Counted from the stretch's first letter, positions 22,761-60,046 are shown. The stretch: DNA of 64,000 nucleotides from Acidobacteriota bacterium (GCA_965205505.1 CBDBHB010000007.1:512001-576000), one strand, 5' to 3'. Notes: generated from the sequence alone by a model not told the origin. Numbers and translations: made by a program.

Positions 22761-22822
22761 ATTCACGACGCTTCAAGGTTAACAGGGTGCTGAAGAACTC
22801 TGTTAAGGCGCAGGGGCCAACC

Positions 22823-24058: not shown

Positions 24059-24072
24059 CAGGAGATTGCCCG

Positions 24073-25527
24073 GTGACCGAATTACGACTTGTGCTGGTGG
24101 CCTCTTTCTTGCTGTGCCTCGCACACGTGTCAACCGCACAAACGCGAACTCGTAATCCTGAAGCCCTGCCCGGCATCAGCGACACCTACTACGGGGCCTT
24201 CGACGACGACAACCCCTATGCGACCAAAGAAATGCTGAACCACATTCGCCGGGAGAAATTCGCCTTGGTTTTACCCCGCGTCATGCGTGATGAACGCATC
24301 GACATGTGGATTCACATTATTCGGCCCTGGACCTTTAGCGGAAACGAGCTCAGAAGACTAGAGGGCCTCGATCTCAATTACAGCAACATCGATTCCACCG
24401 ACCCCCTTCGCTATGAATTCGGCAGCAACGCCGCCGTCCTCGTCTTTACCGATCGTGGCGACGACAGAATTGAGCGGGTCGTCTTTGAAGGTGAGGTTGA
24501 TGACGACGGCGCCTTCGACATCGTCCGCGGCCAGTCGAAGTTCATTAATCAAGAGAATTACGAGATCATGGACTACGTCAGGGAGAACCCGAGCGACGTT
24601 CCCCACTCAGAGATGGGCTACCGGTTCATGGGGCTCGGAGATTTCGTCGCCGAACGTGACCCGAAGCGAATCGGTGTGAATTACGCGGAGAAACTGTCAC
24701 TCGCCGAAGGCTCCGAGACATATACCCTCGCCCTTACCGACGGTATTTCCTATGCGGACCACCTCCATTTGTCTCGCGCGTTGGGCGACAAGTACGCCAA
24801 GCGAATGGTCTCCGCCGAGAACATGATCTTGGACTACCTCACGAGTAGTGTCGCCGGCGAAATCGTTCTCTTTGGTGGCTCCGGCCTACCGCGCCGGACT
24901 AGGACATTTCAAGAGATCGTACCCGGCGTCACCACCTTGCGCGATGTAGGGGGCAGTTGGTTCTCGACGCGCGAATGGGATCATGATGAAAGCGCTTTCG
25001 AAGATTTCCCCCTCCAGCACGGCGACATGTTCCAGAGCGGCATGGTCCCTTACTACGTACTCCGTGAGGGAGAGACCGGGCCGCCTCCAGAAGTCCAAAG
25101 GAGCTGGGATGAGGTCGTGAGAGTCCGCAAGCTCATTAGCAAGAACATCAGGGTCGGTGATACAGGTCGCCAAGCCCTTGCGCGGATCAGCGGCAAATTG
25201 GAAGAAGCCGGGTTTGCCTACATCGACAGAGACAGATTCGACCCGAGCCTGGACCCCGAAAAGACCCAAGTGCACCTAGACCTCCATCAGGTTGGCAAGG
25301 GCATGCTGGCGCCCAGGGTTTCACCTATGGGTGCAAGATGGCACGCGGACAAGAAGATCCCGCTCCTGCTCACCTTGGGCATCGAATACATGGTCCATAT
25401 GCCCGTCCCGGAATGGGGTGAAGGGAGACATATTTACTATTGCAGTCTCCACGAGCGTGGCGTCGTCACGGAGCGAGGTGTCGAATTCGCCGCGCCACCT
25501 GTCGCTGGGATTCAGAGTATTCACTGA
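24073..25527 (+). CDS. Exported divergent M24-like protein, paralog 3
   Basis: GTG start after AGGAGA; signal peptide ending STA-Q; same motif series. Confidence 0.65.
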   Translation: MTELRLVLVASFLLCLAHVSTAQTRTRNPEALPGISDTYYGAFDDDNPYATKEMLNHIRREKFALVLPRVMRDERIDMWIHIIRPWTFSGNELRRLEGLDLNYSNIDSTDPLRYEFGSNAAVLVFTDRGDDRIERVVFEGEVDDDGAFDIVRGQSKFINQENYEIMDYVRENPSDVPHSEMGYRFMGLGDFVAERDPKRIGVNYAEKLSLAEGSETYTLALTDGISYADHLHLSRALGDKYAKRMVSAENMILDYLTSSVAGEIVLFGGSGLPRRTRTFQEIVPGVTTLRDVGGSWFSTREWDHDESAFEDFPLQHGDMFQSGMVPYYVLREGETGPPPEVQRSWDEVVRVRKLISKNIRVGDTGRQALARISGKLEEAGFAYIDRDRFDPSLDPEKTQVHLDLHQVGKGMLAPRVSPMGARWHADKKIPLLLTLGIEYMVHMPVPEWGEGRHIYYCSLHERGVVTERGVEFAAPPVAGIQSIH

Positions 25528-27427: not shown

Positions 27428-28719
27428 GCGAAACCTATCGCATTAGCGACGACCAAATACGGGATGAGAACGCTGCGGCGCTGGCCTCGCTGCAGGACGA
27501 CTTCGACCACCTCGGCGTGCAGCTGGCGCGGCGAGGAATCTCCATCGAAGAGATCACCCGCGAGGCGCAAGGCTTTGCTGTAGCGTTGCCCTCCTGGGGC
27601 GTCGGCACGGGTGGCACGCGCTTCGGGCGTTTTCCAGGAATTGGAGAGCCGCGCAACATCTTCGAAAAACTCGACGACTGCGCGACCGTTCAGCAGTTGG
27701 TCCGCTGCACACCTGCTATCTCCTTGCACATCCCATGGGACCGTCCCGACGACCCTGCCGAGTTGCGAGAACGCGCTGCTCACCTGGGAATCGGTTTCGA
27801 TGCGATCAACTCGAACACTTTTCAGGACCAACCGGAGCAAGCGCTCTCCTATCGATTCGGCAGCCTGGCACACACCGACGCGGCTGTGCGGCGGCAGGCG
27901 ATTGAACACAACCAGGAGTGCATCGAGGTCGGTCGAGAGCTAGGGTCCACGGCGTTGACGATCTGGATCGCCGACGGCGGCAACTTTCCCGGGCAACTGG
28001 ACTTCCGTGCCGCCCTCGGGCGCTACATCGATAGCTTGCGGGAGATCTACTCCGCGCTCCCGAGCGACTGGCGCATGTTCCTCGAACACAAGTTCTTCGA
28101 ACCGGCCTTCTACTCCACGTTGAACAACGATTGGGGAACCAATTACTTGTGCGCCGTGGAGCTCGGGGATCAGGCCTCTTGTCTTGTGGACCTCGGACAC
28201 CACGCTCCGAACGTCAACATAGAGATGATCGTCGCCCGCTTGATCCAGTTCGGTAAATTGGGCGGCTTCCACTTCAACGACAGCAAATATGGTGACGATG
28301 ACCTTGATAGTGGCTCGATCCACCCCTTCCAGCTCTTTCTCGTCATCCATGAGTTGATCGGAGCACGACGCGACGATGCGTCTTTCGCGCCCGCCTACAT
28401 GCTTGACCAATCGCACAACGTGACCGACCCGATCGAGTCCTTGATGACCAGCGCGATGGAAGTGCATCGTGCCTTCGTGCAGGCTCTGCTGGTGGACCGC
28501 GAAGCGCTCGCTGAACATCAAGGAGCCAACGACGCGATCATGGCGCTGGGCACCCTACGCGCAGCCTACCAATGCGACGTCTCCCCGATCCTCGCCATGG
28601 CTCGCCAGCGGTCCGGCGGAGCCGTCGATGCGCTCGGGCTGTATCGCAAGAGTGGCTACCGGAGCAACAAGGGTGTCGAGCGACCCTCCGACGGCGGCTC
28701 TCCGGCGGGGATCGTTTGA
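27418..28719 (+). CDS. rhaI: L-rhamnose isomerase (RhaI type)
   Basis: PSWGVGTGGTRF, LHIPWD, NSNTFQD, EHKFFEP, DLGHH, GFHFND, DQSHN. Confidence 0.9.
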   Translation: MAMSETYRISDDQIRDENAAALASLQDDFDHLGVQLARRGISIEEITREAQGFAVALPSWGVGTGGTRFGRFPGIGEPRNIFEKLDDCATVQQLVRCTPAISLHIPWDRPDDPAELRERAAHLGIGFDAINSNTFQDQPEQALSYRFGSLAHTDAAVRRQAIEHNQECIEVGRELGSTALTIWIADGGNFPGQLDFRAALGRYIDSLREIYSALPSDWRMFLEHKFFEPAFYSTLNNDWGTNYLCAVELGDQASCLVDLGHHAPNVNIEMIVARLIQFGKLGGFHFNDSKYGDDDLDSGSIHPFQLFLVIHELIGARRDDASFAPAYMLDQSHNVTDPIESLMTSAMEVHRAFVQALLVDREALAEHQGANDAIMALGTLRAAYQCDVSPILAMARQRSGGAVDALGLYRKSGYRSNKGVERPSDGGSPAGIV

Positions 28720-30378
28720 TTGGCTGACCGGCGTCCAGCCGGGCCAGCAGGCCGTGGTGAAAGTGTGGTGGGTCTGGTTACGGCGAGTTGGGGCCAGATG
28801 GAAGGCGGCCTGACGATGAGGGTGCCATCGCCTCCTCCTCTCTCCTTGCCTCCAACTCGCAAAACCCTGTCGCCAGACCCACCACACTTTCACCACGGCC
28901 TGCTAGAACGCGCCTATCTGGCGGTGGATCTTGGTGCGGGCAGCGGCCGCGTGATGTTGGGACGTCTGAGCGAGGATGCGCTCGAGCTCGAAGAGCTGCA
29001 TCGTTTTGCCCCGCCTGTGGCGTTCGAAGGGGGTCACGAGCGCTGGAAGCTTGACGGCTTGCTGGCCGAGGTCATGACGGGGCTGCACGCCGTGAGCCGG
29101 CAGCAGCTTGTCGATCCCGCCGAGATCCGCAGTGTTGGAGTCGATGGCTGGGGTGTGGACTATGGCCTGCTCGACGATAGCGGAACCCTGATCGAAAACC
29201 CCGTGTGCTATAGGGACCCGAGAACCGACGGGATGCTCGAAGCGCTGCTCGACAAAGTGCCCATGGAGCAGATCTACGCCAGCACTGGCATCCAGCTCAT
29301 GCCGATCAACACGTCGGTACAGATCTTGGCGCAGGTCGAAGCCGGCGAGTGGCCCCCGCAAGCGAAGCGCTTGCTGATGATCCCCGATCTCGTCCATCGT
29401 CACCTGTCGGGAGCTTCCACCGGGGAGGTCACCAACGCTTCGACCACCCAGCTGTTGCACGCCGGGACAAGAGAGTGGGACGCCCAGATGCTTGATGCGG
29501 TCGGCGTGGCGCCGGAGATCATGCCGTCATTGGCTCAGCCCGGCACACGGCTTGGCAGCCTGCTGCCCGAGCACCGAACCTCCACCGGCCTGAGCCGGCT
29601 CGAGGTCGTCGCGCCCGCCACCCATGACACAGCCAGCGCCGTAGCCGGTACGCCACTGAGTGCCGGATGGGCCTTTCTCTCGTCGGGCACCTGGTCGCTG
29701 TTGGGTATTGAAACCGCGGATCCGATTCTTGGCGATGAGGCCCAGCGTCGCAACGTCACCAATGAAGCGGGGGTCTGCGGCACCAACCGCCTGCTGAAGA
29801 ACGTGATGGGGCTTTGGCTGCTCGAGTCCTGCCGACGCGTTTGGGAATCAGAGGGCATCGGGCTCTCCCATGAAGAACTTCTCGGCGGGCTGCAAGGCAC
29901 TGCGATAGGTGACGGGCACATCGACGTGGACGACACGCGCTTCCTCAATCCCGACAACATGGTCGGGGAAATCAGCTCCTACCTGGTAGAGCGTGGGCAG
30001 GCGATACCGGGCTCACCGGCGGGCTTTGCCCGCTTGATTCTCGAATCGTTGGCGTTGCGTTGCGCGCAGGGCCTCGATGACCTGATGACGGTCACGTCGC
30101 AGAAGGTGCGGGGCGTCCACGTCATTGGTGGGGGCAGCCGCAACGATTTCCTCAACCAGGCCCTGGCCAACGCCACCGGCCTCGCGGTGAGAGCCGGCCC
30201 TGTGGAGGCCACCACCATTGGTAATATCGTGGTGCAGGCCATCGCGGACCATGCCCTCGAGGATCAATCCGCGGCCCGCACTTTTGTTGCCGGCACCTCA
30301 ACCGTCCGGGTTTTTCAGCCGCGAGATGCGGATCGCTGGGCCGCGGCGCGCGAGCGCTTTCGGATGACCCCGACCTGA
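28720..30378 (+). CDS. rhaB: Rhamnulokinase with a 53-codon MITE-derived N-terminal insert
   Basis: AVDLGAGSGR, DGWGVDY, YRDPRT, ATHDTASA, SSGTWSL, TNEAG, GGGSRN, GPVEAT. Confidence 0.9.
   Translation: MADRRPAGPAGRGESVVGLVTASWGQMEGGLTMRVPSPPPLSLPPTRKTLSPDPPHFHHGLLERAYLAVDLGAGSGRVMLGRLSEDALELEELHRFAPPVAFEGGHERWKLDGLLAEVMTGLHAVSRQQLVDPAEIRSVGVDGWGVDYGLLDDSGTLIENPVCYRDPRTDGMLEALLDKVPMEQIYASTGIQLMPINTSVQILAQVEAGEWPPQAKRLLMIPDLVHRHLSGASTGEVTNASTTQLLHAGTREWDAQMLDAVGVAPEIMPSLAQPGTRLGSLLPEHRTSTGLSRLEVVAPATHDTASAVAGTPLSAGWAFLSSGTWSLLGIETADPILGDEAQRRNVTNEAGVCGTNRLLKNVMGLWLLESCRRVWESEGIGLSHEELLGGLQGTAIGDGHIDVDDTRFLNPDNMVGEISSYLVERGQAIPGSPAGFARLILESLALRCAQGLDDLMTVTSQKVRGVHVIGGGSRNDFLNQALANATGLAVRAGPVEATTIGNIVVQAIADHALEDQSAARTFVAGTSTVRVFQPRDADRWAAARERFRMTPT
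28744..28906. mobile_element. MITE family A, internally deleted copy
   Basis: TIRs C(C/T)AGCAGGCCGTGGTGAAAGTGTGGTGGGTCTGG; colinear with both ends of 42507-42785. Confidence 0.85.
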
Positions 30379-35906: not shown

Positions 35907-36581
35907 ATGTCGCACAACGTGCGGAGGCATCTGAGACTCGAGATCAGCGCCTATGACGAGGCCATTCGTCGCTTCATCCCCGGCTACGAGATCATGCTCG
36001 GCGTGGCGGCGGGCGCCGTAGCCGCCGCAGAGCCAGATCTCGTGTGCGACCTTGGCGCGGGCACCGGAGCCCTCTCCGAGGCATTGTTGGCGCGTCGGGC
36101 AGTGGGCACCGTCGAGCTCCTCGACGTGGATGCGGACATGATGGATCAGTCGCGCCAGCGCCTGCAGCGCTTCGGCGATCGTGTGCGCTTCACGCTGCGC
36201 TCGTACCACGAGCCCTTTTCTTCGTGCGACGCGTTCGCCGCATCGCTATCCCTTCACCACATCCTCACGATCGAGGCCAAATCAGCGATGTACGCGCGGG
36301 CGTTTGCGGCGCTGCGGCCTGGAGGTGTGTTGGTTAACGCCGATGCCTACCTGCCAGTCGACCCGACCGAGCGCGATCGGCTCTTTCGGTACTGGGCCGA
36401 TCACATGGTGGCCTCGGGCATCGGCGAAGAGCGTGCCTGGCAACATTTCGAGGATTGGGCCGATGAGGATACCTACCTGCCGCTGGATGCCGAACTGGAA
36501 GCGCTGACGCGGATCGGGTTCGACGCGGCCAGCGTGTGGTCAGATGGGCCCATCAGGGTGGTGGTGGCGAAGAAGGCATAG
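35907..36581 (+). CDS. Class I SAM-dependent methyltransferase (CmoA-like)
   Basis: DLGAGTG, SLSLHH, LRPGGVLVNAD. Confidence 0.85.
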   Translation: MSHNVRRHLRLEISAYDEAIRRFIPGYEIMLGVAAGAVAAAEPDLVCDLGAGTGALSEALLARRAVGTVELLDVDADMMDQSRQRLQRFGDRVRFTLRSYHEPFSSCDAFAASLSLHHILTIEAKSAMYARAFAALRPGGVLVNADAYLPVDPTERDRLFRYWADHMVASGIGEERAWQHFEDWADEDTYLPLDAELEALTRIGFDAASVWSDGPIRVVVAKKA

Positions 36582-36658
36582 CAGAGCGTGGTGGAAGTGT
36601 GGCGGGCCTGGCGACGGGGTCGGGAGCCAGGCCGGTTGACGCTGGGGCGACCTGCTAG
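36578..36658. mobile_element. MITE family A, short degenerate copy
   Basis: TAGCAGAGCGTGGTGGAAGTGTGGCGGGCCTGGCGAC...CCTGCTAG. It starts at the methyltransferase stop and shares CTAG with the family B element. Confidence 0.65.
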
Positions 36659-36838
36659 TGTCCTGAGTCAGGAATCCGTTGCATATCGTCCCAGCCCTTC
36701 GGGTGGCGGCGGGACCGGCCGCCTCCGGCGTCGGCCCTCCTCGACGATGCACTCCGCATCGCCCTCGTCGGGCCTCCTTGCATTCGGCTCGGTCGCACTC
36801 GCCACAATATGTAACGGATTCCTGACTCAGGACACTAG
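36655..36838. mobile_element. MITE family B
   Basis: 32-bp TIR CTAGTGTCCTGAGTCAGGAATCCGTT(G/A)CATAT with one mismatch; no transposase ORF. Confidence 0.85.
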
Positions 36839-36881
36839 TGGCCCATGCGGCTGGCGCGGTGTTCCATCACTGCGGCGGAGG

Positions 36882-37871
36882 TCAGCCGCCTACCTGCACC
36901 ACCACCTTACCCATGGCCTGACCGGATTCCAGTCGGGCATGGGCCGCTGCCACATCTTCGAGGGCATAGGGTTCGCCATCCATCAGTGGGCGGATCTGCC
37001 CGGCTTCCGCGAGGGCGGTGATCTCCCGCATGATCTGGCCGTGCGCGGCCGCCCCCGCCCCGTGCAACAACGGGATCAGCATCAGGACGCCGATATGCTG
37101 CAATCCCTTCAGATGCACGGGCGTCAAATCCTGGGTCGAATTGTTCTGGCAGCTGACCACCGTGCCCTTCAGTTTGGCGGCGGCCCAGGATTTCGGGATG
37201 TTCTCACCGCCAACCGTGTCAAAGACGATATCGAAGCCGGCCCCACCCGTATGGGCGGCGACGTAGTCCTCGACGCTGTCTTCTCGATAATTGATGGGAA
37301 TGGCGCCGAACTCGCTGACCACGGACGCCTTTTCCGGGCCGGATACAGTCGCATAGACTTTGGCCCCGCGGGCGATGGCGATCTGTATGGCGACATGGCC
37401 GACGCCGCCGGCGCCCGCGTGAACCAAGACAGTCTGGCCTTAGCCTACATTGGCGCCATCGACAAGGGCTTCCCAGGCGGTCAGACAGACCAGGGGTAGC
37501 GCCGCGGCTTGCGCCATCGACAGGTTGGTCGGTTTCGGCGCCAGAAAGTCAGCATCACAGGCCATGAGTTCAGCCAAAGCCCCGCCCGTACCTTTGACCC
37601 CGCCGGCACAGCCATAGACCTCTGCGCCCACCTCGAAAGCGTTGACCTCGGCGCCGACAGCCTCCACCACGCCGGCCACGTCGCCCTGCAGCACGGCGGG
37701 CAAATCGGGGCCCAGAGGCAGACCGAGCTTGCGGATCTTCCAGTCCACCGGGTTTACCGAAGTCGCCGCGACCCGCACCAGGACCTGGCTGGGGCCGATG
37801 CGTGGCACCGGGACATCCGCCGCTTCGAAGACCGAGGGTTCGCCGCTTTCGCGGATGATCATGGCTTTCAT
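36882..37871 (-). pseudogene. MDR-family NADPH:quinone oxidoreductase with an in-frame TAA at 37440-37442
   Basis: SVNPVDWKIR, GDVAGVV, ANVG*GQTVLVHAGAGGVG; both ORFs are in the same frame. Confidence 0.85.
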
Positions 37872-37933
37872 GAAGGCTCTCCTGGTTGCGTGGTGGGCTA
37901 CCCAGCCTTTCTAAGGCTTCAGAATCCACCCGT

Positions 37934-38848
37934 TTAGCCCGCTCCGGTCTCCTTCGCAACCCGCTGCTCGTACAGTTCCGTTAGCCGGCGCGTCAGGCTT
38001 CCGGGTGTGCCGGCGCCGATGGTTCGTCGATCCACCGCAACCACCGGCGTCGGGCCGCCGAACGTACCGGTGACGAACGCCTCGTCGGCGGAGTAGACCT
38101 GCGGCAGGGAGAAGTTCTTCTCGCACGCCGCGATGCCGTTGTCGCGGCATAGCTCGAGCACCACCGCGCGGGTGACGCCGTTGAGGCAATAGTCGCCGGT
38201 CGAAGTCCACACTTCGCCGCCGCGCACGACGAAGAAGTTGGTGGCGTTGCAGGTGGCGACAAAGCCGTGCGGGTCGAGCATCAGCGCCTCGTCGGCGCCC
38301 ACGTTGATGGCGCCGAGCATGGCGACGATGCAGTTGAGCTTGCTGTGCGAGTTGATCTTCGGATCCTGTACGTCGGCGCGGCCGCGGCGGATGTGTGAGG
38401 TGACGAGCTCGATGCCCTGCCGGCTCGGCTCCGGGCTGGCCTCCTTGTACTCGGCGGCGATGACAATCGTTGGCGGCCCGACATTGACGCGCGGGTCCTG
38501 CGAAGGCGTGTGCTGGAGGCCGCGGGTGATCATCAAGCGCACGTGCACACCCGACTCCATGCCGTTCTCGCGCACCGTGAGATACAGCGCCTCCACCAGC
38601 TCGTCACGACTCATGCCGATGTCGATCTGCATCGTCGCGGCGCCCTCGAACAGGCGGTCGAGGTGCTTGTCGAGGAAGGCGTATTTACCGTTGTGCAGCC
38701 GCAGCCCCTCCCACACGCCGTCGCCGAGGGCGAAGCCCGAATCGAACACCGACACCTTGGCCTCGGCGCGCGGCACCAGCTCGCCGTCGAGGTAGACGAG
38801 GACGTCGTCGTTGCGTGCGTCGGGGATGTATTCGTGGGTACCGGGCAT
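37934..38848 (-). CDS. Class IV aminotransferase (branched-chain/D-amino acid type)
   Basis: SVFDSGFALGDGVWEG, HLDRL, NSHSKLN, LNGVTR, ADEAFVTGT. Confidence 0.9.
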   Translation of the reverse strand: MPGTHEYIPDARNDDVLVYLDGELVPRAEAKVSVFDSGFALGDGVWEGLRLHNGKYAFLDKHLDRLFEGAATMQIDIGMSRDELVEALYLTVRENGMESGVHVRLMITRGLQHTPSQDPRVNVGPPTIVIAAEYKEASPEPSRQGIELVTSHIRRGRADVQDPKINSHSKLNCIVAMLGAINVGADEALMLDPHGFVATCNATNFFVVRGGEVWTSTGDYCLNGVTRAVVLELCRDNGIAACEKNFSLPQVYSADEAFVTGTFGGPTPVVAVDRRTIGAGTPGSLTRRLTELYEQRVAKETGAG

Positions 38849-38879
38849 GGCGCCGAATTCTACCGCTACACTGCGCCGC

Positions 38880-40158
38880 ATGAGCTGGTATCGGCAAAAC
38901 CCACTGGCAGATCCTCGCGGCGCTCGTCGCCGGGCTGATCTACGGGCTCGTCGCCGGCCTGGCCGGCTGGCACGCGTTCACCGCCGCGTGGATCGCCCCC
39001 TTCGGGCGCCTGTTTCTCAACTTCCTCAAGCTCGTCGCCGTGCCGCTGGTGTTCTCCACGCTGGTCGTCGGCGTCGCCTCCCTCGCCGACGTGCGCAAGC
39101 TGTCCCGCATCGGCATACGGACCCTGGCCGCATTCCTGGCGCTGAGCTTGCTCGCCTCCTTGATCGCCCTGTCAACCACGCTGCTGATCCGCCCAGGTGC
39201 CGACTTACCGGCCGACATGCGCGCCGATCTGGTGGCGGCGTACGGTGCGTCCAACGCGGCCACCGCCGAATCCGCCGCCGGCCTGCGCGGCGCAGGTCCG
39301 CTGCAGGCGCTGGTGGATCTGGTGCCGGACAATCTGGTGGCGGCGGCATCGAACAACGCCAACCTGCTGCAGCTGGTGTTCGTCGCGCTGCTGCTGGGCA
39401 TCGCCCTGCTGCAGGTGCCGGCGGAGAAGGCGGCGCCGGTGCTGCGTCTGCTCGACGGCGTCGCAGCGGTGGTCGTCCAGTTCGTCAAGCTGGGCATGAA
39501 GCTGGCGCCGATCGGTGTCTTCGCCCTCATTGCCGATGCCCTGGTCACCGTCGCCCCCGACGACCCGGCGCAACTCGGCCTGTTGCTGCGGGCCTTGGGC
39601 GGCTACTTCTTGACGCTGACCCTGGCGCTCGCAGTGCAAACGTTCGTCGTTTTTCCCCTGCTGCTGCGCGCCGCCGCACAGGTCAACATCATCGACTTCT
39701 TCCGTGGCCTCTCCCCGGCAATGCTGGTGGCGTTCTCCACCAGCTCCAGCGCCGCCGCCCTCCCCGTGACCATGGAGCAGTGCCGCGACGAGCTTCACTT
39801 CTCCGACGAGGTGACCTCGTTCGTGCTGCCGCTCGGCGCCACCCTGCACATGAACGGCACGGCGATGTTTCTGTCGGTGGCGGCGGTGTTTCTCGCCCAG
39901 GCCTTCGGCCACCCCCTGAGTACGTCCGACCTGCTGAGCATCGTTACCATCTCGCTCATCGGCTCGGTCGGTGCCGTCGCCATTCCGAGCATCGGCGTCG
40001 TGTTTCTCGTGGTCATCCTCGAGACCATCGCCGTGCCGGTGGCTGGGGCCGCCCTGGTGCTCGGTGTCGACCGCCTCCTCGATATGATGCGCACGACCAC
40101 CAACGTCACCGGTGACGCGGTGGTCGCCGCCTGCATGCCGGTGTCACTGGACGATTGA
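38880..40158 (+). CDS. Dicarboxylate/amino acid:cation symporter (DAACS), frameshift near 38898
   Basis: HWQILAAL, AFSTSSSAAALP, LPLGATLHMNG, DRLLDMMRTTTNVTGD. Confidence 0.88.
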
Positions 40159-40347
40159 TCGGCTTCGTGCGCCGGGAAGGTGTGTTGGGGCGCGGCGGTG
40201 CCTCGACGGTAGAAGGTCTACGAGATCGACTCTGCGCGGAAACCACAACGGATCACGCGGCCTCCCGCCTGAGCTCGCGAAGGCTACCAGTTCCGGTTTC
40301 CTGATGGCCGCGCAACGCGGTTCGGCGACTCATACCCTTGGGTAGAG

Positions 40348-41880
40348 TCATGCTGCACCAATATGTTCCGCCAACCTAACCGCAAGCGCCGATACCGTTA
40401 ACGTCGGGTTGGCCGCTCCAATACTGGGGAACACAGCATTCGAACATACATAGAGATTATCCGTGCCGTGAACCTGTAAATCAGGATTGACGACACCGTC
40501 TTCATCGGAGCTGCTCATGCGGCAGGTTGACGCTGCATGGGCTCCATCAGGATCACTAACATCGCTTTCGATACTCTCTTCCTTGCACCCGGCGGTTTTC
40601 AGTATCTCAACAAACGTCTGCATGTGTTCCTGTCGAGTCTTGATGTTGATGTCGTGAACGCCGACCTCGATTTCTGTCGTGGGAAGGCCGTGTCTCGTTG
40701 TACCGCTTCCCAAGCTCACTCGGTTCTCCGGGCTTTCGAATTGCTCCATTTCGCCGCCCAATGAGATTCTCATCTCAGAACTCAAGCTTACATCCATATC
40801 AGGCCGCGACACATTTGAAAGGATTTGCCTTTCCAAAGAGGAGCTCGCGCCGACACCCCCAGAAAACCACATTTTGCCTTTATGCTGATATTCCGGTGAA
40901 TCAAAATGACGGCTGATCAGGGAGGAGAAGCCGAGTTCCCCAGCGAGCTTGTCCGGGTTTCCTGGCCGAACGCCTGAGGCGCCCATCACCGGATGGCCGA
41001 TCAAATGCCGGCCGACATGCCCTGAGTCGTTGCCTAGACCGTCGGTCCAGTCGTTGTTGGCAGAGGACAGCAGAAGTTTCGCGGATTCGATTGTGCCACC
41101 GCAAACGATAACCACATCAGCTTCCAGTGAGTCAGGAGCACCCGTCTCAAGGTTTAGAAAGCCGACTCCCCGGGTACGCTGTTTCCCATCCATCAATATG
41201 TTGATGACTGGCGATTCTGTTTTCAGGGTCAGCTTGTCGTCATATTCATCTTGCAGTTGTGCCAAATCGTAGAGAGCCGTATATCGCGCATTCACAGGGC
41301 AATAATTGCAGGTTCCTGTCGTAATACATCGATTGCCGTCCCTGGCTATCGACATATGCCCGTAGGATATGTCATGGCTCGTGAGAGCCTCGATGATCAG
41401 CGCGTCACCTAGGGTAAAAGCGGTTGGTGGGAATGGGTACTTCGCACCATACCGTGGTGGATCATCATTCTCTGAATCACCCGTAATGCCCAGTAGAATC
41501 TCGGCTTCCGCATAATAGGGCGCCATATCGTCATAGTTGATTGGCCAGTCGGCCCCGTATCCGGTACGGGACTTTAGTTCAAAGTCTTCAGGTTTGAGGC
41601 GCGGCGTCAGGCCGCCCCAGTGATTGGTCGTGCCGCCTTTCACAAAGAGCCTTGAGCCACGTAGTCCGAAGTGTTCGGTCTCCGTTCTCGGATCATCAAC
41701 GAACTCTCTGTAGAGATCGACGTCGGCCATCACTTGATCAAGCCAAATTCGATAATCGCCAGGCTTGAAGTCAGGACCTGCCTCAAAAACAGTGATCTGA
41801 TAGTCGTTCTCGGTTTTGAGGAGCTGCCTCGCCAATGTCGCACCGGCCACGCCGGAGCCAACGATGATGATGGACTTCAT
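40348..41880 (-). CDS. GMC family flavoprotein oxidoreductase, large subunit
   Basis: IVGSGVAG, GGTTNHWGG, DWPINY, Cys cluster CITTGTCNYCP, VCSNAVFP, ANPTLT. Confidence 0.9.
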   Translation of the reverse strand: MKSIIIVGSGVAGATLARQLLKTENDYQITVFEAGPDFKPGDYRIWLDQVMADVDLYREFVDDPRTETEHFGLRGSRLFVKGGTTNHWGGLTPRLKPEDFELKSRTGYGADWPINYDDMAPYYAEAEILLGITGDSENDDPPRYGAKYPFPPTAFTLGDALIIEALTSHDISYGHMSIARDGNRCITTGTCNYCPVNARYTALYDLAQLQDEYDDKLTLKTESPVINILMDGKQRTRGVGFLNLETGAPDSLEADVVIVCGGTIESAKLLLSSANNDWTDGLGNDSGHVGRHLIGHPVMGASGVRPGNPDKLAGELGFSSLISRHFDSPEYQHKGKMWFSGGVGASSSLERQILSNVSRPDMDVSLSSEMRISLGGEMEQFESPENRVSLGSGTTRHGLPTTEIEVGVHDINIKTRQEHMQTFVEILKTAGCKEESIESDVSDPDGAHAASTCRMSSSDEDGVVNPDLQVHGTDNLYVCSNAVFPSIGAANPTLTVSALAVRLAEHIGAA

Positions 41881-42464
41881 GCTCCTCTCCTGTAGCTCTC
41901 GGGAGCAGTGAACGCACCACCAAAGTATCCGCTGTAGTTCCATAGCCCAAAGCTCTTGAAGGCGCCCGACATGGGAATTTGATGAGTGATCAATTCGGCG
42001 AAGACGAAGCGCCTGGCACGTCCGAGTTTTGTGGATGAGAAATTCTCGACGTCGAATTCTGAAAAGAGAAGGGATGCCCACGCCTGCTCGACACCGGAGG
42101 TGCTGCCTACCACCAGATTGAACAATTCGACAGCATTCTCGTATTCCGTCAAGTAGCTGGGTTCCTCCTCTGTCTTGAATTGGAGGTCCGCCCTTAGCCG
42201 GCCGAAATAGAGGGGCATGTCGGCCCCTAGTTCCCAGGCCTGGTTCACGTACCGGCACAAAGTTGACAGAGCGTCGAACTCATCCTGGCTCAGGACGCCG
42301 GTTCGCGTCTCATCGACGGGCAAGTCGGAGTCGCTTATGAAATGGAGCAACTCGGCGGAGTCATCCTGGGTCAAGGGGATGCAAGCAAAGGGCAGAGAGG
42401 CAAGCACCCCCGAGGAAAGGCCCAGCTTCAGGAGCCGCCTTCGATCAATGTACAGCTTCCTCAT
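41877..42464 (-). CDS. Tat-signal small subunit partner of the GMC dehydrogenase
   Basis: DRRRLLK Tat motif; overlaps the GMC start; C-terminal GLWNYSGY. Confidence 0.7.
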   Translation of the reverse strand: MRKLYIDRRRLLKLGLSSGVLASLPFACIPLTQDDSAELLHFISDSDLPVDETRTGVLSQDEFDALSTLCRYVNQAWELGADMPLYFGRLRADLQFKTEEEPSYLTEYENAVELFNLVVGSTSGVEQAWASLLFSEFDVENFSSTKLGRARRFVFAELITHQIPMSGAFKSFGLWNYSGYFGGAFTAPESYRRGA

Positions 42465-42506
42465 GTCGGTCCCTCCGGCGACTTTCAGGATGGTTGAGTA
42501 AGTGGA

Positions 42507-42785
42507 CTAGCAGGCCGTGGTGGAAGTGTGGTGGGTCTGGTTACGGCGAGTTGGGGCCAGTTGCAAGGCGGCCTGACACAGGCGATGCCCTAGCCATCGT
42601 CCAGGAAGGCCAACGCCGCAAATGGCCCCAAATCGCCGTAACCCTTCGGGCGACAGGGGGTTGCGCGCGTATGCTGCGTCGTTCCTCGTCAACGATGGGG
42701 TTACCATCGCCTCCTCCTCTCTCCTCGCCTCCACTTCGCAAGACCCTGTCGCCAGACCCACCACACTTCCACCACGGCCTGCTAG
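42507..42785. mobile_element. MITE family A, full-length copy (279 bp)
   Basis: Perfect 34-bp TIR CTAGCAGGCCGTGGTGGAAGTGTGGTGGGTCTGG; two internal hairpin arms separated by CCCTTCGGG. Confidence 0.9.
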
Positions 42786-43041
42786 GAGCCATCGCCCGAC
42801 GGGCCCGGTCGGGTACCAGCTTGCATACGCTACTCAGCGATGTGGTCAGTCGTCTGAAGCCTATCGTCGGAGCGCGCGCGGGTCCACGACGCGCAAAACT
42901 ACGCGCGCTATGGGTACGTGTTGAGAGATGTCGGGCCAGTAGCGTAGGGTCTGGCGGACTCTCGCCACCGAACCAGGTCGGGAAGCGGCTGCGAACGTGG
43001 CCGCGATCCCCTCCGGGTGGCACCCCGACAGGAGATCCACG

Positions 43042-44042
43042 ATGCGCGATTCGCTTGGCCTCACGATCATCGCTGCAGTCGCCGCGATCGTCGCCGCCTG
43101 CGGCGCGCCCACCGATACCGTACCACCCACCGCGCAGATCGGCGATCTGCCGATGACCGGGTCGTTCACCCAAGGGCTCGCGCGCACGCTCACCGACAAC
43201 TCCTTCTCGACTGCCCGGGCGGCCGCATCGCCGCCGTCGGCACCGTCACTGCGCACGACGACACCACATGGATTGTTCCGGCGTCGACCGCGTTCCAGAC
43301 CGGCCCCAGGGCCGCGGACCTGTACAACGAGTGCGGCGGCACGATGCTGGCCAGCAGCGCCGAGATCGATCTCGAGGCGCTCCCGGTCACCGAGATCGAC
43401 CCCCACGGCGATGTGATCACCGTCTACGTCTTTGCCGACAACTATTTCGAGCTCTACGTCGCCGGTACGCTGGTCGCGGTCGACCCTGTCCCCTTCACGC
43501 CATTCAACTCGAACGTCGTGCGCTTTCGCGCCCAACGTCCGTTCGGCGTCGCCGTGCTGCTCGTCGATTGGGAGGAGAACCTCGGCCTGGGCTCCGAGCA
43601 GGGCCTGGGGTCGCCCTACCATCCGGGCGACGGAGGCTTCGTGGCACGCTTCGAGGATGACGCCGGGCACCCCATCGGCAAGACCTCGGCGGACTGGAAG
43701 GCGTTGACCCTGTACATCGCTCCGTTCGCCAACCCCGAATGCCTTGCCGTGCAGGGAATGCAGCGCCTCTCGCGCAACTGCCTCAGTGAAGTCACCGAAG
43801 GAGGAGACAATCTCTACGGTGTGCACTGGAATCTGCCCGAGGGGTGGACCCAGGAGAGCTTCGACGACCACGACTGGCCGGAGGCCAGGACGTTCACCAA
43901 CGAAACGGTCGGCGTCGACAATAAACCCGCCTACACCAACTTCCTCGACATCTGGGACGACCCGGAATTCGACCCGGTATTCATCTGGTCGGATAACCTC
44001 GTGCTGGACAACCTGGTCCTGGTGCGCGGCAGAATCGGCTAG
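43042..44042 (+). CDS. Lipoprotein of unknown function, frameshift near 43200
   Basis: RBS AGGAGA, lipobox VAAC; C-terminal ADNYFELYV, DPVPFTPFNS, FDDHDW, IWSDNLVLDN suggests a beta-sandwich. Confidence 0.65.
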
Positions 44043-49642: not shown

Positions 49643-51778
49643 ATGTCGTCAGCGAGATCAACGGTTGACCCGCAACCTCGTAGTGACGCCCCCGGGGCAG
49701 CTCCGATCCACGGCACCATCCGCCGCTGCTTCAGCGGGCTGACGCTAGCCGCGTGCCTGCTGGTCAGCTCGGCCACGGTCGTGCCATCGGCAGCAGGGTC
49801 GAGAGGTCCGTACGGCTTGCGCACCGAGAAGGTGTGGATTCCGATGCCGGACGGCGTGCGGCTTTCCGCCACGCTGTACATGCCCGACGGGGGAGCGCCC
49901 GGGGAGAAGTTCTCGGCCGTGCTGAACTACCACCCCTATCGCAAGGACGACGGCAGCGGCAGGTCGAGCACCGACGCCTACTTTGCATCGCACGGCTTGG
50001 TGGGAGCGGTCGTCGACATTCGTGGCACCGGCAGCAGCGAGGGCAAGGCCATCGAGCACGAGTACTCGGACATCGAGCAGCGCGACGGCCTGGAGATCAT
50101 CGACTGGCTGTCCAAGCAACCTTGGTCGACGGGCAACGTCGGCATGCGGGGGCTATCGTGGAGCGGCTTCAACTCTATCCACATGGCGATGCGCAAGCCG
50201 CCGGCGCTTAAGGCCATCGTGCCGAACATGGCCAGCGACGACCTCTTCTACGACGACGTGCACTACTGGGACGGCATGGTGCACCACTCCACATGGGAGC
50301 AGGGCTTCGACGTCAGCATCGCGAGAAGCCGTACGCCCGATTTTCCGACCGACGAGGAGACGTTGGCGCAGCGCTTTGACTCGCCGCCGCCGACGCTCTT
50401 CTACATCGACAAGCAACGTGACAACCCCTACTGGGACGGCCGCTCGCTGAACACCGACTACAGCGCCGTCGACATCCCGACGATGATGATCGGCGGCTGG
50501 TACGACGGCTACCGGGACAGCCTGTTCCGCATGCTCGAGCACATGGACGTGCCGGTCAAAGCGATCGTCGGCCCCTGGACTCACACCTCGCCACAATCGG
50601 CTAGCCCCGGCCCGAGGATCGAGGGGCGCCACGAGATGGTGCGCTTCTTCGATCACTGGCTCAACGGCAAGGACACCGGGCTCATGGACGAGCCGCCCCT
50701 GTCGGTGTACGTACGCAACTGGTATGCGCCGCCGGGAACCGACCTGGAGGAGGTCCCCGGACAGTGGCGGATGGAAGAGTGGCCTCTGCCGCGCGCCGAG
50801 CCGCGACCGCTGTATCTGACCGACTCCGGCGAGCTGGCCGACGTGGCGCCGAGCCCAGGGCACCACGAGCTCGAGTACCGTCCGTCGATGGGCGCGGAGT
50901 TCGGGTCCCGCTGGTGGGGCAACTTCACGCCCGATCAGCGCGCGGTCGATGCGGCGGGAAGCCTCGTCTACGAGTCGGCCCCGCTCACCGAGGACCTCGA
51001 GATCCTCGGGTTTCCCATGGCGATGCTGCACGCCTCCGCATCGGCACCGCTGGCCAACTGGTTCGGACGACTGACCGACGTGGCGCCGGACGGCAGCGTG
51101 ACGCTGGTCACCGGCGGTGGCCTGAGCGGCGCGCGACGCGATCCGTCTACGGAACCGACGGCGCTGGAGCCCGGCAAGGTGTACCCACTGGAGCTGGAGC
51201 TACACGTGACCTCCTGGGTGTTCCCCAAGGGCCACAAGATCCGGCTGGCGATCTCCAACGCGTTCTTCCCGCTCAACTGGCCGACGCCGTATCCGATGAC
51301 CACGTCGCTGTATTTTGGCGGCGATCGGATTTCCAAGCTCGTGCTTCCCACGGTGCCCTACGAGGCCCGCCCGAAGCCCGAGTTTCTCCCGGTGCAACCG
51401 AATCCACCGTCCGAGAACGTGAGGTACTTGCCGGGCTCGTCTTCACGGAAGGTCGACCGCGACGAGGAGAGTGGACGGACACGTATCTCGGTGCGCAGCA
51501 CCAGCGCCGGCGACTACCCGTGGGGAAGGCGAGCTTCGGACCAGAACCTGATCTACGACATCGACGACGATCGGCCCGAGGCGGCGGAGCTACACAGCGA
51601 CAACAGCATCACGTTGATCCTGGAAGGTGGATCACGCGTGCTCGTGTATCGCGGCTGGATGGACTTCGAGGGCGACCACGACAACTTCTACTATCGCTAC
51701 CGCCGCACGCTGCTCGAGAACGGCATTCAGATCCGCGAGAAGCAGTGGGAGAAGACCGTCCCCCGGGACCACCACTAG
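49643..51778 (+). CDS. Exported CocE/NonD family hydrolase; start uncertain
   Basis: IPMPDGVRLSA, PYRKDD, DIRGTGSSEG, GLSWSG, GGWYD, GPWTH. Confidence 0.9.
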   Translation: MSSARSTVDPQPRSDAPGAAPIHGTIRRCFSGLTLAACLLVSSATVVPSAAGSRGPYGLRTEKVWIPMPDGVRLSATLYMPDGGAPGEKFSAVLNYHPYRKDDGSGRSSTDAYFASHGLVGAVVDIRGTGSSEGKAIEHEYSDIEQRDGLEIIDWLSKQPWSTGNVGMRGLSWSGFNSIHMAMRKPPALKAIVPNMASDDLFYDDVHYWDGMVHHSTWEQGFDVSIARSRTPDFPTDEETLAQRFDSPPPTLFYIDKQRDNPYWDGRSLNTDYSAVDIPTMMIGGWYDGYRDSLFRMLEHMDVPVKAIVGPWTHTSPQSASPGPRIEGRHEMVRFFDHWLNGKDTGLMDEPPLSVYVRNWYAPPGTDLEEVPGQWRMEEWPLPRAEPRPLYLTDSGELADVAPSPGHHELEYRPSMGAEFGSRWWGNFTPDQRAVDAAGSLVYESAPLTEDLEILGFPMAMLHASASAPLANWFGRLTDVAPDGSVTLVTGGGLSGARRDPSTEPTALEPGKVYPLELELHVTSWVFPKGHKIRLAISNAFFPLNWPTPYPMTTSLYFGGDRISKLVLPTVPYEARPKPEFLPVQPNPPSENVRYLPGSSSRKVDRDEESGRTRISVRSTSAGDYPWGRRASDQNLIYDIDDDRPEAAELHSDNSITLILEGGSRVLVYRGWMDFEGDHDNFYYRYRRTLLENGIQIREKQWEKTVPRDHH

Positions 51779-51810
51779 CAGGCCGTAGTGAAAGTGTAGT
51801 GGGTCTGGTT
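51775..51810. mobile_element. Solo terminal repeat of MITE family A
   Basis: CTAGCAGGCCGTAGTGAAAGTGTAGTGGGTCTGGTT fills the gap between two convergent stops. Confidence 0.8.
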
Positions 51811-59637: not shown

Positions 59638-59750
59638 CGTTCACCTCGTCTTGGCGGCGGATACGGGCACAGCGATGACGGTGGGGCCGTCGAGCCTGGC
59701 GTTGCCGGTGCCACTCCGTCCGCCCGGCGTCGACTCACCACGCGTCGACT

Positions 59751-59785
59751 CTAGCAGGCCGTGGTGAAAGTGTGGCGGGCCTGGC
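59751..59785. mobile_element. Solo terminal repeat of MITE family A
   Basis: CTAGCAGGCCGTGGTGAAAGTGTGGCGGGCCTGGC, followed by another CTAG at 59792. Confidence 0.75.
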
Positions 59786-60046
59786 AATCGACTAGCGGTG
59801 AATCGTTAGGCCCAATGTTTAGGTGGGGACACCGCTTACCGGGCGTCGGGTGGCCTTGTCTTGTTGAGTGCTCATCCCGACAGCCGTGGGCCGGAGACGC
59901 GATTCTGCGAGTGCGAACTGACGACGGCCACGCCCTTGTCGGTATTCCTAGAGGCAGGCCAGTTTCTTGCTAAACTGCGGGCACAGTTTGGGCACAATCG
60001 GCCTCACAAGATCCACCGTGCGGCTCGTAAGTGCCCATGAATAAGG

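Follow-up and report, generated by a model that had tools for sequence, protein, structure and literature searches.

RUP of Streptococcus pneumoniae and other bacterial MITEs mobilised by IS630 transposases are small, non-coding, multi-copy elements that are bounded by TIRs and lie at TA or CTAG sites. Correia (NEMIS) of Neisseria and ERIC/IRU of enterobacteria are palindromic repeats between genes, transcribed together with their neighbours and folding into RNA hairpins, and the BOX elements of pneumococcus are modular, mosaic repeats that are not known to have TIR-defined transposase partners. REP/BIME elements, which go with RAYT transposases, are described as abundant structured palindromes in alternating orientation whose structure is kept across variants (PMC2817692). 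Here, we show that a hairpin module in a 64,000-nucleotide stretch of an Acidobacteriota genome (GCA_965205505.1 CBDBHB010000007.1:512001-576000; hereafter the window) is the apex of a ~100-nt arm hairpin, and that this arm is the building block of a superfamily of non-coding CTAG-site MITEs.

How do these elements compare with the described systems? Like RUP and the other IS630 MITEs, they have ends that match an IS630-family IS of the same genome, but unlike these, their core also occurs with IS5-like ends, and it combines two arms, covarying stems, fixed non-canonical pairs and a presence in several phyla. The resemblance to Correia and ERIC concerns how the module may work and is not one of membership; there is no sequence relation, and in contrast to both, the module elements have two separate arm hairpins, conserved tandem G.A steps and many TIR classes. 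With BOX they share the reuse of modules in different combinations, again with no sequence relation. Unlike REP/BIME, the module units are TIR-bounded and far larger and have DDE-type partners, and no RAYT was found. MITE interiors are usually seen as dispensable filler, whereas here the interior is conserved and the ends are interchangeable. The parts of the literature that were searched hold no description of this core.

A sequence-only reading of the window had proposed that 42563-42620(+) and 36724-36781(-) match at 43 of 58 nt and belong to elements whose TIRs are unrelated beyond CTAG. Both statements are borne out. Across 127,886 placements in the window, no other non-self match is as good as the ungapped alignment of the first segment with the reverse complement of the second (runner-up 34, mean 15.9); its binomial expectation over all placements is 2e-8. 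The TIRs of the two carriers, elements A and B, have only CTAG in common. A third, inverted copy proposed at 42672-42728 is real as well, and the covariance model places it in the second arm of element B (Table 1). As for the compensatory changes, the outer-stem exchange of GGCCC/GGGCC for GGCCT/AGGCC stands, whereas the inner stem CGATGG/CCATCG had been assigned to the wrong copy: it belongs to the third copy, and at 42563 the stem reads CGATG/CATCG, topped by a C-C opposition. Three features had escaped that reading, namely that element A is one-armed, that a fourth, fused copy lies at 28781-28862(-), where the covariance model matches weakly (26.3 bits), and that the purine segments are best taken as tandem G.A pairs.

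Table 1. Module-bearing elements and related remnants in the window
Feature	Position	Strand	Evidence or remark
Element B, complete two-armed MITE, TIR family B, 279 bp, CTAG-bounded	42507..42785	.	inverted repeat I2
Element B left TIR, IS5-like class, starts CTAGCAGG	42507..42540	+	
Element B arm hairpin, X-type module, sense on + (contains 42563-42620)	42550..42632	+	covariance model 84.7 bits
Element B central mini-hairpin CCC-NNN-GGG, between arms	42642..42650	.	read from sequence; present in all family consensuses
Element B second arm, Y-type module, sense on -	42660..42742	-	covariance model 51.2 bits
Element B right TIR	42752..42785	-	
Element A (variant Aw), one-armed MITE, 184 bp, TIR family A, CTAG-bounded	36655..36838	.	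inverted repeat I8
Element Aw left TIR, IS630 class, starts CTAGTG	36655..36689	+	
Element Aw arm hairpin, X-type module, sense on - (contains 36724-36781)	36712..36794	-	covariance model 82.3 bits
Element Aw right TIR	36804..36838	-	
B-type element remnant, left TIR only, abuts element Aw	36577..36654	+	repeat family D4
Short B-type element, 164 bp, two modules fused at apical hairpin	28743..28906	.	repeats D7, D8, I4
Solo B-type TIR, truncated element without module	51774..51810	+	D4; no model match
Solo B-type TIR, truncated element without module	59750..59786	+	D4; no model match

The ends of element B are those of a consensus built from 56 genomic copies, with 45 full copies aligned, and its inverted-repeat arms measure 47 nt. 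In its X module, P2 is formed by 42570-42574 with 42607-42611 and P3 by 42581-42587 with 42595-42601; the score of this module is high by construction because the copy is among the training rows of the covariance model, as is the X-type copy of element Aw. The Y module has a degenerate outer stem P2, and its subfamily, subfamily 1, comprises 56 copies. Element Aw, whose TIRs of 35 nt are 94% complementary, lacks the Y arm and is, by comparison with the two-armed family consensus (fam4 and fam7), a one-armed deletion derivative; it was counted with the one-module elements. In the remnant that abuts it, the TAG at 36579-36581 is the stop codon of an ORF at 35907..36581(+). Two features of MITEs are found: TIRs bound a short element (I2, I8), and the many dispersed copies have unrelated flanks.

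We count 330 modules in this genome, which fall into some 14 subfamilies of two or more copies, and none of the 330 loci has an overlapping match on the opposite strand. A same-strand TIR lies at most 70 nt upstream of 297 modules. The 532 TIR ends, 254 of them B-type when up to six mismatches are allowed, give 151 pairs, of which 106 fall into the 260-279 bp length bin. A full element of ~270 bp runs from TIR to arm hairpin, CCC-NNN-GGG mini-hairpin, inverted arm and second TIR, and all 110 two-module elements are arranged (+,-). The 5' end of the module, with CAAGG, always points toward the nearer TIR, so each DNA strand has one sense module, in its 5' half. Family consensuses break off exactly at the CTAG ends, and 149 of the 151 elements are intergenic. 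Both ends are CTAG in 91 of the 151 pairs; asymmetric pairs such as TTAG..CTAG fit a TA duplication, although later mutation could also give them. Single linkage on whole flanks put almost everything in one group because the elements are mosaics, and clustering was done on the module instead. The module had been proposed as possible cargo of different non-autonomous elements. The carriers are indeed non-autonomous and of two unrelated end types, but the module is not free cargo: it is the apex of the arm in one shared two-arm architecture, and families A and B are thus related through their cores.

The ends of the module carriers derive from two unrelated transposase families, IS630 and IS5/IS1182-like. 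TIR classes A, C, D and G (CTAGTG) have their counterpart in an IS630 copy of this genome; in the Aw TIR, bases 1-17 are identical to the right end of a 1190-bp IS630-family IS at ~264 kb of G000:C9, whose protein has HTH and DDE_3 domains. Class F ends agree in 21 of their first 22 bases with IS5-like ISs of the relatives G007, G005 and G011, which encode a protein with DUF772, DDE_Tnp_1 and DDE_Tnp_1_6, and both are CTAG-bounded. This recalls MITEs of the IS5 superfamily (IS5/IS1182 groups), from which the module elements differ in that their interior is unrelated to the IS and is common to IS630-type MITEs. For class B, the class of element B, the clear match to the IS5-like end is confined to CTAGCAGG plus some scattered inner positions, and the B and E ends are placed with the IS5/IS1182-like class by resemblance. 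No autonomous IS with B-type ends was found here, as B-B TIR pairs 1.4-4.8 kb apart flank ordinary genes and no transposases; nor was an IS5-like partner with these ends found in this genome, whose sole DDE_Tnp_1 locus was rejected as a candidate on account of its unrelated ends. A BLAST search of element B against plasmids gave no match.

Families A and B might instead descend from one IS whose internal sequence explains their similarity. With 19 IS loci checked, none of the ISs that match the ends contains the module. Hybrid elements with one end of each class do exist, and their junctions lie inside or beside modules. End swapping may have proceeded by insertion of one element into a CTAG within another, after which recombination between the conserved cores would delete the intervening DNA and leave a core with new ends.

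The module folds, from the outside in, into a variable stem P1 (~12-25 bp), a CAAGG/RACGCC internal loop, a variable and covarying 5-bp stem P2, the succession G.A, A.G, a covarying C-G or G-C pair, G.A, A.G, and P3 (GGCGATG/CATCGTC, with a conserved G.U) beneath an apical loop of 5-7 nt. Selection on a folded single strand, as had been proposed, is supported by the pairing. Paired cells make up 80.9% in 32 representatives from this genome, compared with 66.4% after shuffling and 35-44% after sliding, and double changes occupy 123 cells versus 50; the observed covariation score was reached in none of 500 shuffles. In 55 distinct copies from other genomes, pairing is 86.1% versus 66.6%. The stems covary, while the two tandem G.A steps, CAAGG and ACGCC stay fixed. 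Columns 29-58 hold C-G in 21 and G-C in 7 of the 32 rows, and the flanking G27, A28, G30 and A31 and G56, A57, G59 and A60 each occur in 24-31 rows. Of the segments that had been called unpaired, CAAGG and ACGC are conserved as claimed; the purine segments make more sense as tandem G.A pairs. In a kink-turn, tandem G.A/A.G pairs come directly after a three-base bulge. In the module, the tandem G.A steps go with no more than an optional one-base bulge, and the base between them covaries as a Watson-Crick pair, which points toward a continuous helix.

Several asymmetries indicate which strand folds. G.U exceeds A.C by 64:18 in this genome and by 80:11 in other genomes, so the selected fold is on one strand only. 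Purine-purine oppositions (G.A/A.G) outnumber pyrimidine-pyrimidine ones (C.T/T.C) by 1413:351, and 11 of 13 subfamilies have a sense arm that folds more stably than its complement. There is a slim chance that the inverted repeat CGATG-N-CATCG is instead a duplex binding site of a dimeric host protein that MITEs have spread. The sequence of P3 is nearly invariant, beyond what pairing alone would ask, as such a site would have it; however, the compensatory changes in P1 and P2 and the strand asymmetry are left unexplained, and the weak matches in G031 and G034 (E ~1e-5) keep the loops and have a different P3.

These same matches, with loops retained around a different P3, also speak against a core without function, whose pairing would be upheld by recent common ancestry, transfer among genomes, inter-family recombination and template switching that corrects palindromes, and whose fixed blocks would simply not yet have diverged. 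Families C and D are very young indeed (mean divergence 2.7% and 1.0%), recombinants between families are common, and private mutations are nearly evenly distributed: in family B, 14 fall in 74 core positions and 43 in the other 137, which is no significant depletion of the core (p=0.13), and purifying selection on established copies is therefore not supported. Nonetheless, CAAGG, ACGCC, the G.A steps and P3 are retained across subfamilies and phyla whose P1 and P2 have diverged almost fully, and correction by template switching would erase G.A and G.U oppositions, not keep them on one strand. We consider a functionless core quite unlikely.

Two other candidates were discarded. A small conserved ORF that would begin at the invariant P3 ATG does not keep its frame because the loop length varies between 5 and 7 nt, and the sequence in family B is ATG-CCC-TAG. 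As for GATCAAGG, an IHF-like site fails because the second half of the consensus is missing and X-type modules are without the motif.

In line with the sequence-only reading, which could assign the module to no named family, no match was found in Rfam, Acidobacteria-specific motifs and small ribozymes included. Searches of window positions 36000-43500 with E up to 10 returned chance-level matches only, the one over the module being mir-75 (24 bits against a cut-off of 60), and 20 further loci covering 14 module types gave nothing on the modules. The small ribozyme that had been suggested, or more broadly a self-cleaving ribozyme, riboswitch or independent small RNA gene, might account for conserved non-Watson-Crick positions within a covarying fold. 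Such an RNA has a very slim chance of being correct, given that even the permissive Rfam threshold yielded no match, ribozyme models included, that the consensus fold is a single unbranched hairpin with neither a junction nor a pseudoknot, and thus without the multi-helix junction and conserved core of hammerhead and other junction-type ribozymes, that the elements have no promoter-like site, and that they are associated with no particular gene. The suggested REP-like recognition unit fails because no Y1/RAYT gene was found: PF01797 has no match in this genome (G000, 96.3% complete), although 6 of 14 control genomes match. A REP/BIME-like unit that a RAYT (Y1) transposase mobilises would share with the module its abundance as an intergenic palindrome and its alternating orientations, but the 297 modules within TIR-bounded elements, the unit length of ~100 nt and the missing GTAG head leave it a negligible probability.

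What might the core do? Our leading explanation combines a shared-core MITE superfamily, end swapping and a core that works as an RNA hairpin, and we judge its chances as a whole to be about even. We put slightly less than even odds on the core acting as folded RNA once transcription from neighbouring genes runs into the element. In RNA, it would serve as a transcript-end, processing or protein-binding hairpin, making new insertions tolerable, and the two inverted arms would handle transcripts arriving from each side. The gene context counts in favour of this reading. Of 171 neighbouring gene 3' ends, 55 take their stop codon from the TAG of CTAG; over a third of the elements start at a gene's TAG stop, and 45 of 149 elements lie between convergent genes, compared with a background of 18% as obtained with a crude custom gene caller. 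Against it, among one-module elements between tandem genes, those with the module antisense to the incoming gene outnumber those with it sense by 12 to 4, the opposite of the prediction, although the number is small and a deletion bias is possible. The X-first or Y-first orientation relative to the gene has no clear bias (26 versus 14 at stop codons, 37 versus 48 elsewhere), and scanning the elements revealed neither a canonical promoter nor a canonical terminator. Twenty sequencing runs contain the stretch; the two labelled as RNA (shares 0.05-0.08) are contigs only and possibly contain DNA, and the contigs of the runs break at element ends, so that neither an empty site nor usable transcript starts or ends were recovered.

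The 12 antisense cases among 16 one-armed elements fit better with a core that folds as single-stranded DNA, its sense hairpin forming on an exposed strand such as the lagging-strand template and aiding mobilisation or copying or just shaping stability. An ssDNA fold accounts for the strand specificity no less than RNA does, since DNA tolerates G.T and sheared G.A pairs. Shared variants of family B are depleted in P3 (0.53 per position) much as in the TIRs (1.19), compared with P1 (3.9) and P2 (4.5), as expected of a feature needed for propagation; this depletion, as a sign of selection at the level of lineages, counts for the leading explanation as well. In addition, the surviving module of one-armed elements is sense on the leading-strand template, as assigned by GC skew, in 16 of 20 cases, 13 of the 16 short elements among them, a bias which suggests that a sense hairpin on the lagging-strand template folds in vivo and is then lost. 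However, skew-based replichore assignment on draft contigs is rough at n=20, and a deletion bias reports folding, not function. The transposases of IS630 and IS5 work by cut and paste on double-stranded DNA and have no known need for a folded strand, and a Y1/HUH transposase was not found in the genome. On balance, an ssDNA role seems somewhat unlikely.

In a further reading, which we think unlikely, the arm hairpin would be an independent functional unit, a strand-specific RNA or ssDNA that a protein or RNase recognises through the two tandem G.A steps and CAAGG/ACGCC. It would spread between bacterial phyla by acquiring, time and again, the ends of whatever CTAG-targeting transposon is active (IS630 or IS5) and persist as a bidirectional transcript-end or insulator signal at stop codons.

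Whichever way it acts, one covarying hairpin with fixed non-canonical pairs is present in hundreds of copies per genome and has no counterpart in Rfam. Should the core work in RNA, a 3'-end element brought in by transposition would be common to thousands of genes of uncultured soil bacteria; should it work in DNA, cut-and-paste MITEs would depend on a cis-acting part that has so far gone unrecognised. Pattern hits in Cellulomonas, Corynebacterium, Brevibacillus and Thioalkalivibrio isolates and in Variovorax and Rhodoferax MAGs are taken as chance, scoring at most 20 bits or nothing, and the single pattern match among viral contigs was rejected by the covariance model. Of 151 genomes sampled from the phylum, 41, about a quarter, carry the module, which is also present in MAGs labelled Myxococcota and Gemmatimonadota; the module-bearing MAGs outside the phylum are labelled as other soil and sediment phyla.

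Elements A and B, a one-armed and a two-armed MITE, share a folded core of about 58 nt (the module); the likeness between them, which the sequence-only reading had put at 43 of 58 nt, is confirmed, and the phenomenon as a whole proves larger than that reading reported. Ungapped alignment of both copies returns the same 43/58, which is the best non-self match of the 58-mer among 127,886 placements on both strands of the window (runner-up 34, mean 15.9), where 43 or more matches over all placements have a binomial expectation of 2e-8. The TIRs of A and B are, as claimed, unrelated beyond CTAG, and the inverted third copy is real; the window also holds a fused fourth copy. The stem CGATGG/CCATCG, previously assigned to the copy at 42563, actually belongs to the third copy.

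Coordinates of elements, modules and neighbouring features (C6, C8 and C9 are contigs of the genome of the window, G000)
Feature	Location	Remarks
Element A	window 36655-36838	bounded by CTAG; 35-nt inverted repeats
Element B	window 42507-42785	bounded by CTAG; 47-nt inverted repeats
Third module copy, inverted	window 42660-42742(-)	51 bits, covariance model
B-type element with fused fourth module copy	window 28743-28906	164 bp; repeats and covariance model
Hybrid element	G000:C6:57575-57850
Hybrid element	G000:C6:284178-284452
Hybrid element	G000:C9:2672084-2672362
Hybrid element	G000:C9:2745429-2745709
Nested pair, example	G000:C9:1907559-1907640	outside the window
Nested pair, example	G000:C9:2857004-2857087	outside the window
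Second IS630 type	G000:C8:~138,150-139,300	ends begin CTAGTGTAGCG / CTAGTATAG
ORF	window 35907..36581(+)	stops in a B-type TIR remnant, at window 36577-36581
Three tandem paralogous genes	window 21446-25443	~1.3-1.45 kb spacing

Four rounds of nhmmer over the whole genome of the window (5.98 Mb, 64% G+C, 9 contigs; the window is C7:512001-576000) recovered 330 module loci, none of which (0/330) has an overlapping match on the opposite strand. These form 31 clusters at 85% identity, 14 of them with at least two members (56, 56, 35, 33, 29, 25, 24, 17, 11, 8, 8, 5, 4 and 2). Every cluster consensus, built from the module plus 250 nt of flank, follows the same plan: CTAG and a TIR of ~34 nt, an arm, a mini-hairpin, an inverted arm, and again TIR and CTAG, where each arm is a hairpin of ~100 nt with the module at its tip and the mini-hairpin between the arms reads CCC-NNN-GGG. 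A search with seven TIR consensuses, allowing up to six mismatches, found 532 ends in G000 (B 254, C 96, D 69, A 52, F 29, Aw 21, G 11) and 151 adjacent pairs, 106 of which fall in the 260-279 bp length bin. In all 110 two-module elements the left module is on the plus strand and the right on the minus strand, and a same-strand TIR lies at most 70 nt upstream of the module 5' end in 297 of 330 cases; the ends of the remaining 33 are mostly variant or truncated. Given this layout and the proximity of the TIRs, the module is never free-standing in G000, and its CAAGG end always points toward the nearer TIR. The modules of the two arms are of two old types, X (5' GACGA, 3' GAGGA) and Y (5' GAGGA, 3' GACGA), with one of each per element in families A to D; element A is a one-armed derivative that is without the Y arm.

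Both RNAalifold and a manual model applied to 32 representatives, aligned with MAFFT without structure input, give one unbranched hairpin with stems P1, P2 and P3 from outer to apical. Under the 25-pair manual model standard pairs occupy 80.9% of cells, against 66.4% after shuffling and 35-44% when partners are displaced by 1-3 columns; double-change cells number 123 versus 50 after shuffling, and the covariation score of 0.393 (0.167 shuffled) was reached by none of 500 shuffles. Double-sided changes occur at 6/6 P2 pairs and 11/12 P1 pairs, and the compensatory stem changes on which a folded structure had been proposed are thus upheld as covariation over 32 rows. In the segment joining P2 to P3 the two strands are G-A-(C/G)-G-A and G-A-(G/C)-G-A, with covarying middle positions (C-G in 21 rows, G-C in 7) and flanking G and A in 24-31 of the 32 rows, from which we infer one Watson-Crick pair with a tandem sheared G.A step on each side. 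The change from C-G to G-C falls together with the X/Y split and may have been a single event. A G.U pair in P3 is kept in 24 of 32 rows. A search with the covariance model derived from this alignment gave 72 copies from loci elsewhere, in other genomes; their 55 distinct sequences, in an alignment that was fitted to the model and leans toward it, have 86.1% of cells paired (66.6% shuffled) and 235 double-change cells (82 shuffled).

Which of the two strands is selected to fold? At paired columns G.U exceeds A.C by 64 to 18 in G000 and by 80 to 11 in other genomes, or 40 to 18 and 53 to 11 when the conserved wobble is left out. Over all distinct arms of 14 subfamilies, whose copies are not independent, G.A/A.G oppositions number 1413 versus 351 for C.T/T.C, with G.A/A.G the commoner kind in 13 of the 14. 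In 11 of 13 subfamilies the predicted fold of the sense arm has greater stability than that of its complement, the difference reaching 13.7 kcal/mol. Since elements occur in both orientations, a mutational strand bias cannot explain this asymmetry, and the fold under selection is the one formed by the sense strand, whether in RNA or in single-stranded DNA.

The ends trace to different transposases. IS630-family copies occur in G000, where DDE_3 has six matches, and a 1190-bp IS of this family, with two copies on C9 and a 381-aa protein with HTH domains and DDE_3, ends in CTAGTGTCCTGAGTCAG, the same sequence as bases 1-17 of the A-type TIR in the window. Among the TIR pairs and transposase loci of G000 no IS with B- or F-type ends was found. 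A search of related genomes for DUF772 transposases yielded IS5-like elements in G007, G005 and G011 (protein domains DUF772, DDE_Tnp_1 and DDE_Tnp_1_6), whose ends begin CTAGCAGGGTGATGAAAAACTC or CTAGCAGGCTGCTGAAAAACTC and agree with the F-type TIR at 21 of its first 22 bases; clear agreement with the B-type TIR is confined to CTAGCAGG and some positions further in. No module lies in any of 19 IS loci, a set that includes every IS630 and DDE_Tnp_1 locus of G000 as well as IS5-like ISs from five relatives, so the interior of one IS, which the sequence-only reading had named as a competing source, does not explain the similarity of A and B. DDE_3 occurs in 10 of 41 relatives, all ten of them module carriers, and in 0 of 17 module-free genomes, and is absent in 14 carriers. 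The duplicated target may be TA or CTAG. Both ends are CTAG in 91 of the 151 pairs; the remaining pairs differ between their two ends (six are TTAG..CTAG and three CTAG..CTAA, for example), which fits a TA target duplication, and mutation after insertion could give them too. As side observations, the 5.1-Mb genome G007, of the same family as G000, has undergone a massive IS expansion, with at least 146 DUF772 (IS5-like) and 43 DDE_3 (IS630) matches, and a second IS630 type on C8 sits at the closing CTAG of a B-type TIR remnant, an example of end nesting.

The ends are interchangeable between the two transposase families: hybrids of normal length exist in which one TIR is of IS630 type and the other of IS5 type. 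In subfamily consensuses of 8 and 11 members the Y module of a C-type MITE holds a class E (B-like) MITE in its apical loop, and as the consensuses themselves carry the nesting, the ~550-bp pair seems to be copied as a unit. The junction in the C6:57575 hybrid lies directly 3' of ACGCC in a module, where a deletion between the directly repeated cores of a nested pair would be expected to place it. Hybrids, nested pairs and this junction together suggest a route to new ends: one element would insert into a CTAG within another, and the conserved cores would then recombine. The module apical loops of several subfamilies contain CTAG or TTAG, the preferred target (e.g. window 42588-42594), which may explain the nesting of elements in one another's loops.

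The core is a new structured motif within an ordinary kind of element. Left without a named family by the sequence-only reading, it matches none in Rfam, neither in the window region (E up to 10) nor in 20 loci covering the module types of G000 and other genomes; the sole Rfam match over a module is to a microRNA-precursor model, at 24 bits versus a cut-off of 60. Nor is the core described in the full-text literature searched, including passages of PMC11602168, whose supplementary MITE catalogues could list these elements. With the covariance model the module is found in 24 of 41 relatives (genus 4/4, family 8/10, sister family of the order 11/15) and, phylum-wide at E <= 1e-5, in 41 of 151 evenly drawn genomes (40/150 without the unpublished genome G071) and 31 of 105 genera. 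An exact-pattern scan of all species genomes gave at least 110 stretches, and the 80 listed are mostly from Acidobacteriota MAGs. When 19 of the listed loci, from records not labelled Acidobacteriota, were scored with the covariance model, 12 proved to be true modules (48-81 bits), from MAGs labelled Gemmatimonadota (3 loci), Myxococcota/Myxococcales (4, three of them in one MAG on contigs of 42-850 kb), Brocadiaceae (2), Spirochaetaceae and Chlamydiota, and from a 7.5-Mb 'delta proteobacterium' chromosome; 2 of the 12 are on contigs below 3.1 kb and could be mis-binned. The other seven, including all four isolates, score at most 20 bits or nothing and are taken as chance matches, as is the single match in viral contigs. 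The TIRs of the distant copies differ again, some being IS5-like and others IS630-like, and the copies often have a single arm; weak matches in G031 and G034 (E ~1e-5) keep CAAGG, P2, GACGAG/GAGGAG and AACGCC around a different, longer P3.

What could the core do? Our own crude GC3-based gene caller (3700 genes, 73% coverage) places 149 of 151 elements between genes, 45 of these 149 between convergent genes (background 18%), and the TAG of the element's CTAG is the gene stop codon at 55 of 171 neighbouring 3' ends. From these positions the 3' ends of many gene transcripts must, it appears, run on into an element, and whichever side a transcript came from, it would meet a sense module first. 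We tentatively favour, at a little under even confidence, that the core acts at the RNA level in such read-through transcripts. However, where a one-module element lies between tandem genes, it is antisense to the gene reading into it 12 times and sense 4 times, X and Y have no clear orientation bias relative to genes, and a scan of the elements found no canonical terminator or promoter.

Action of the core as single-stranded DNA, with which the sense-strand fold is equally compatible, is a less likely alternative. One-armed elements have mostly kept the module whose sense strand lies on the leading-strand template (13 of 16 short elements and 16 of 20 in all; 20 one-module elements of six TIR classes on C8 and C9, replication strand from GC skew). 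This suggests that slippage removes the sense hairpin, the more stable of the two, when it folds on the lagging-strand template; the bias is evidence of an in vivo effect of the strand asymmetry on the DNA itself, not of a function. Among 45 full copies of family B (mean divergence 6.7%), variants shared by at least two copies number 0.53 per position in P3, 1.19 in the TIRs, 3.9 in P1 and 4.5 in P2, and private mutations are near-even (core 14/74 positions, others 43/137). With shared variants depleted and private ones near-even, the core, like the TIRs, is conserved among proliferating lineages; selection on settled copies is not seen in the family B private mutations (p=0.13). That the core has no function beyond descent and recombination is improbable. 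The remaining probability is shared by a binding site on duplex DNA, a ribozyme or small RNA, and a REP-like unit, and the last, an option of the sequence-only reading, is opposed by the absence of a Y1/RAYT gene from G000.

Some further features of the window deserve mention. One ORF has its stop within a B-type TIR remnant, and three tandem paralogous genes contain repeated stretches that are 67-88% identical. The bins with B-type elements (28664-29327 and 41944-43271) have the peak summed contig depth in two RNA-labelled marine-sediment and two DNA runs, and contigs with other flanks in those runs stop exactly at 42507 and 42785; the depth peaks reflect many related copies in those samples, not expression.
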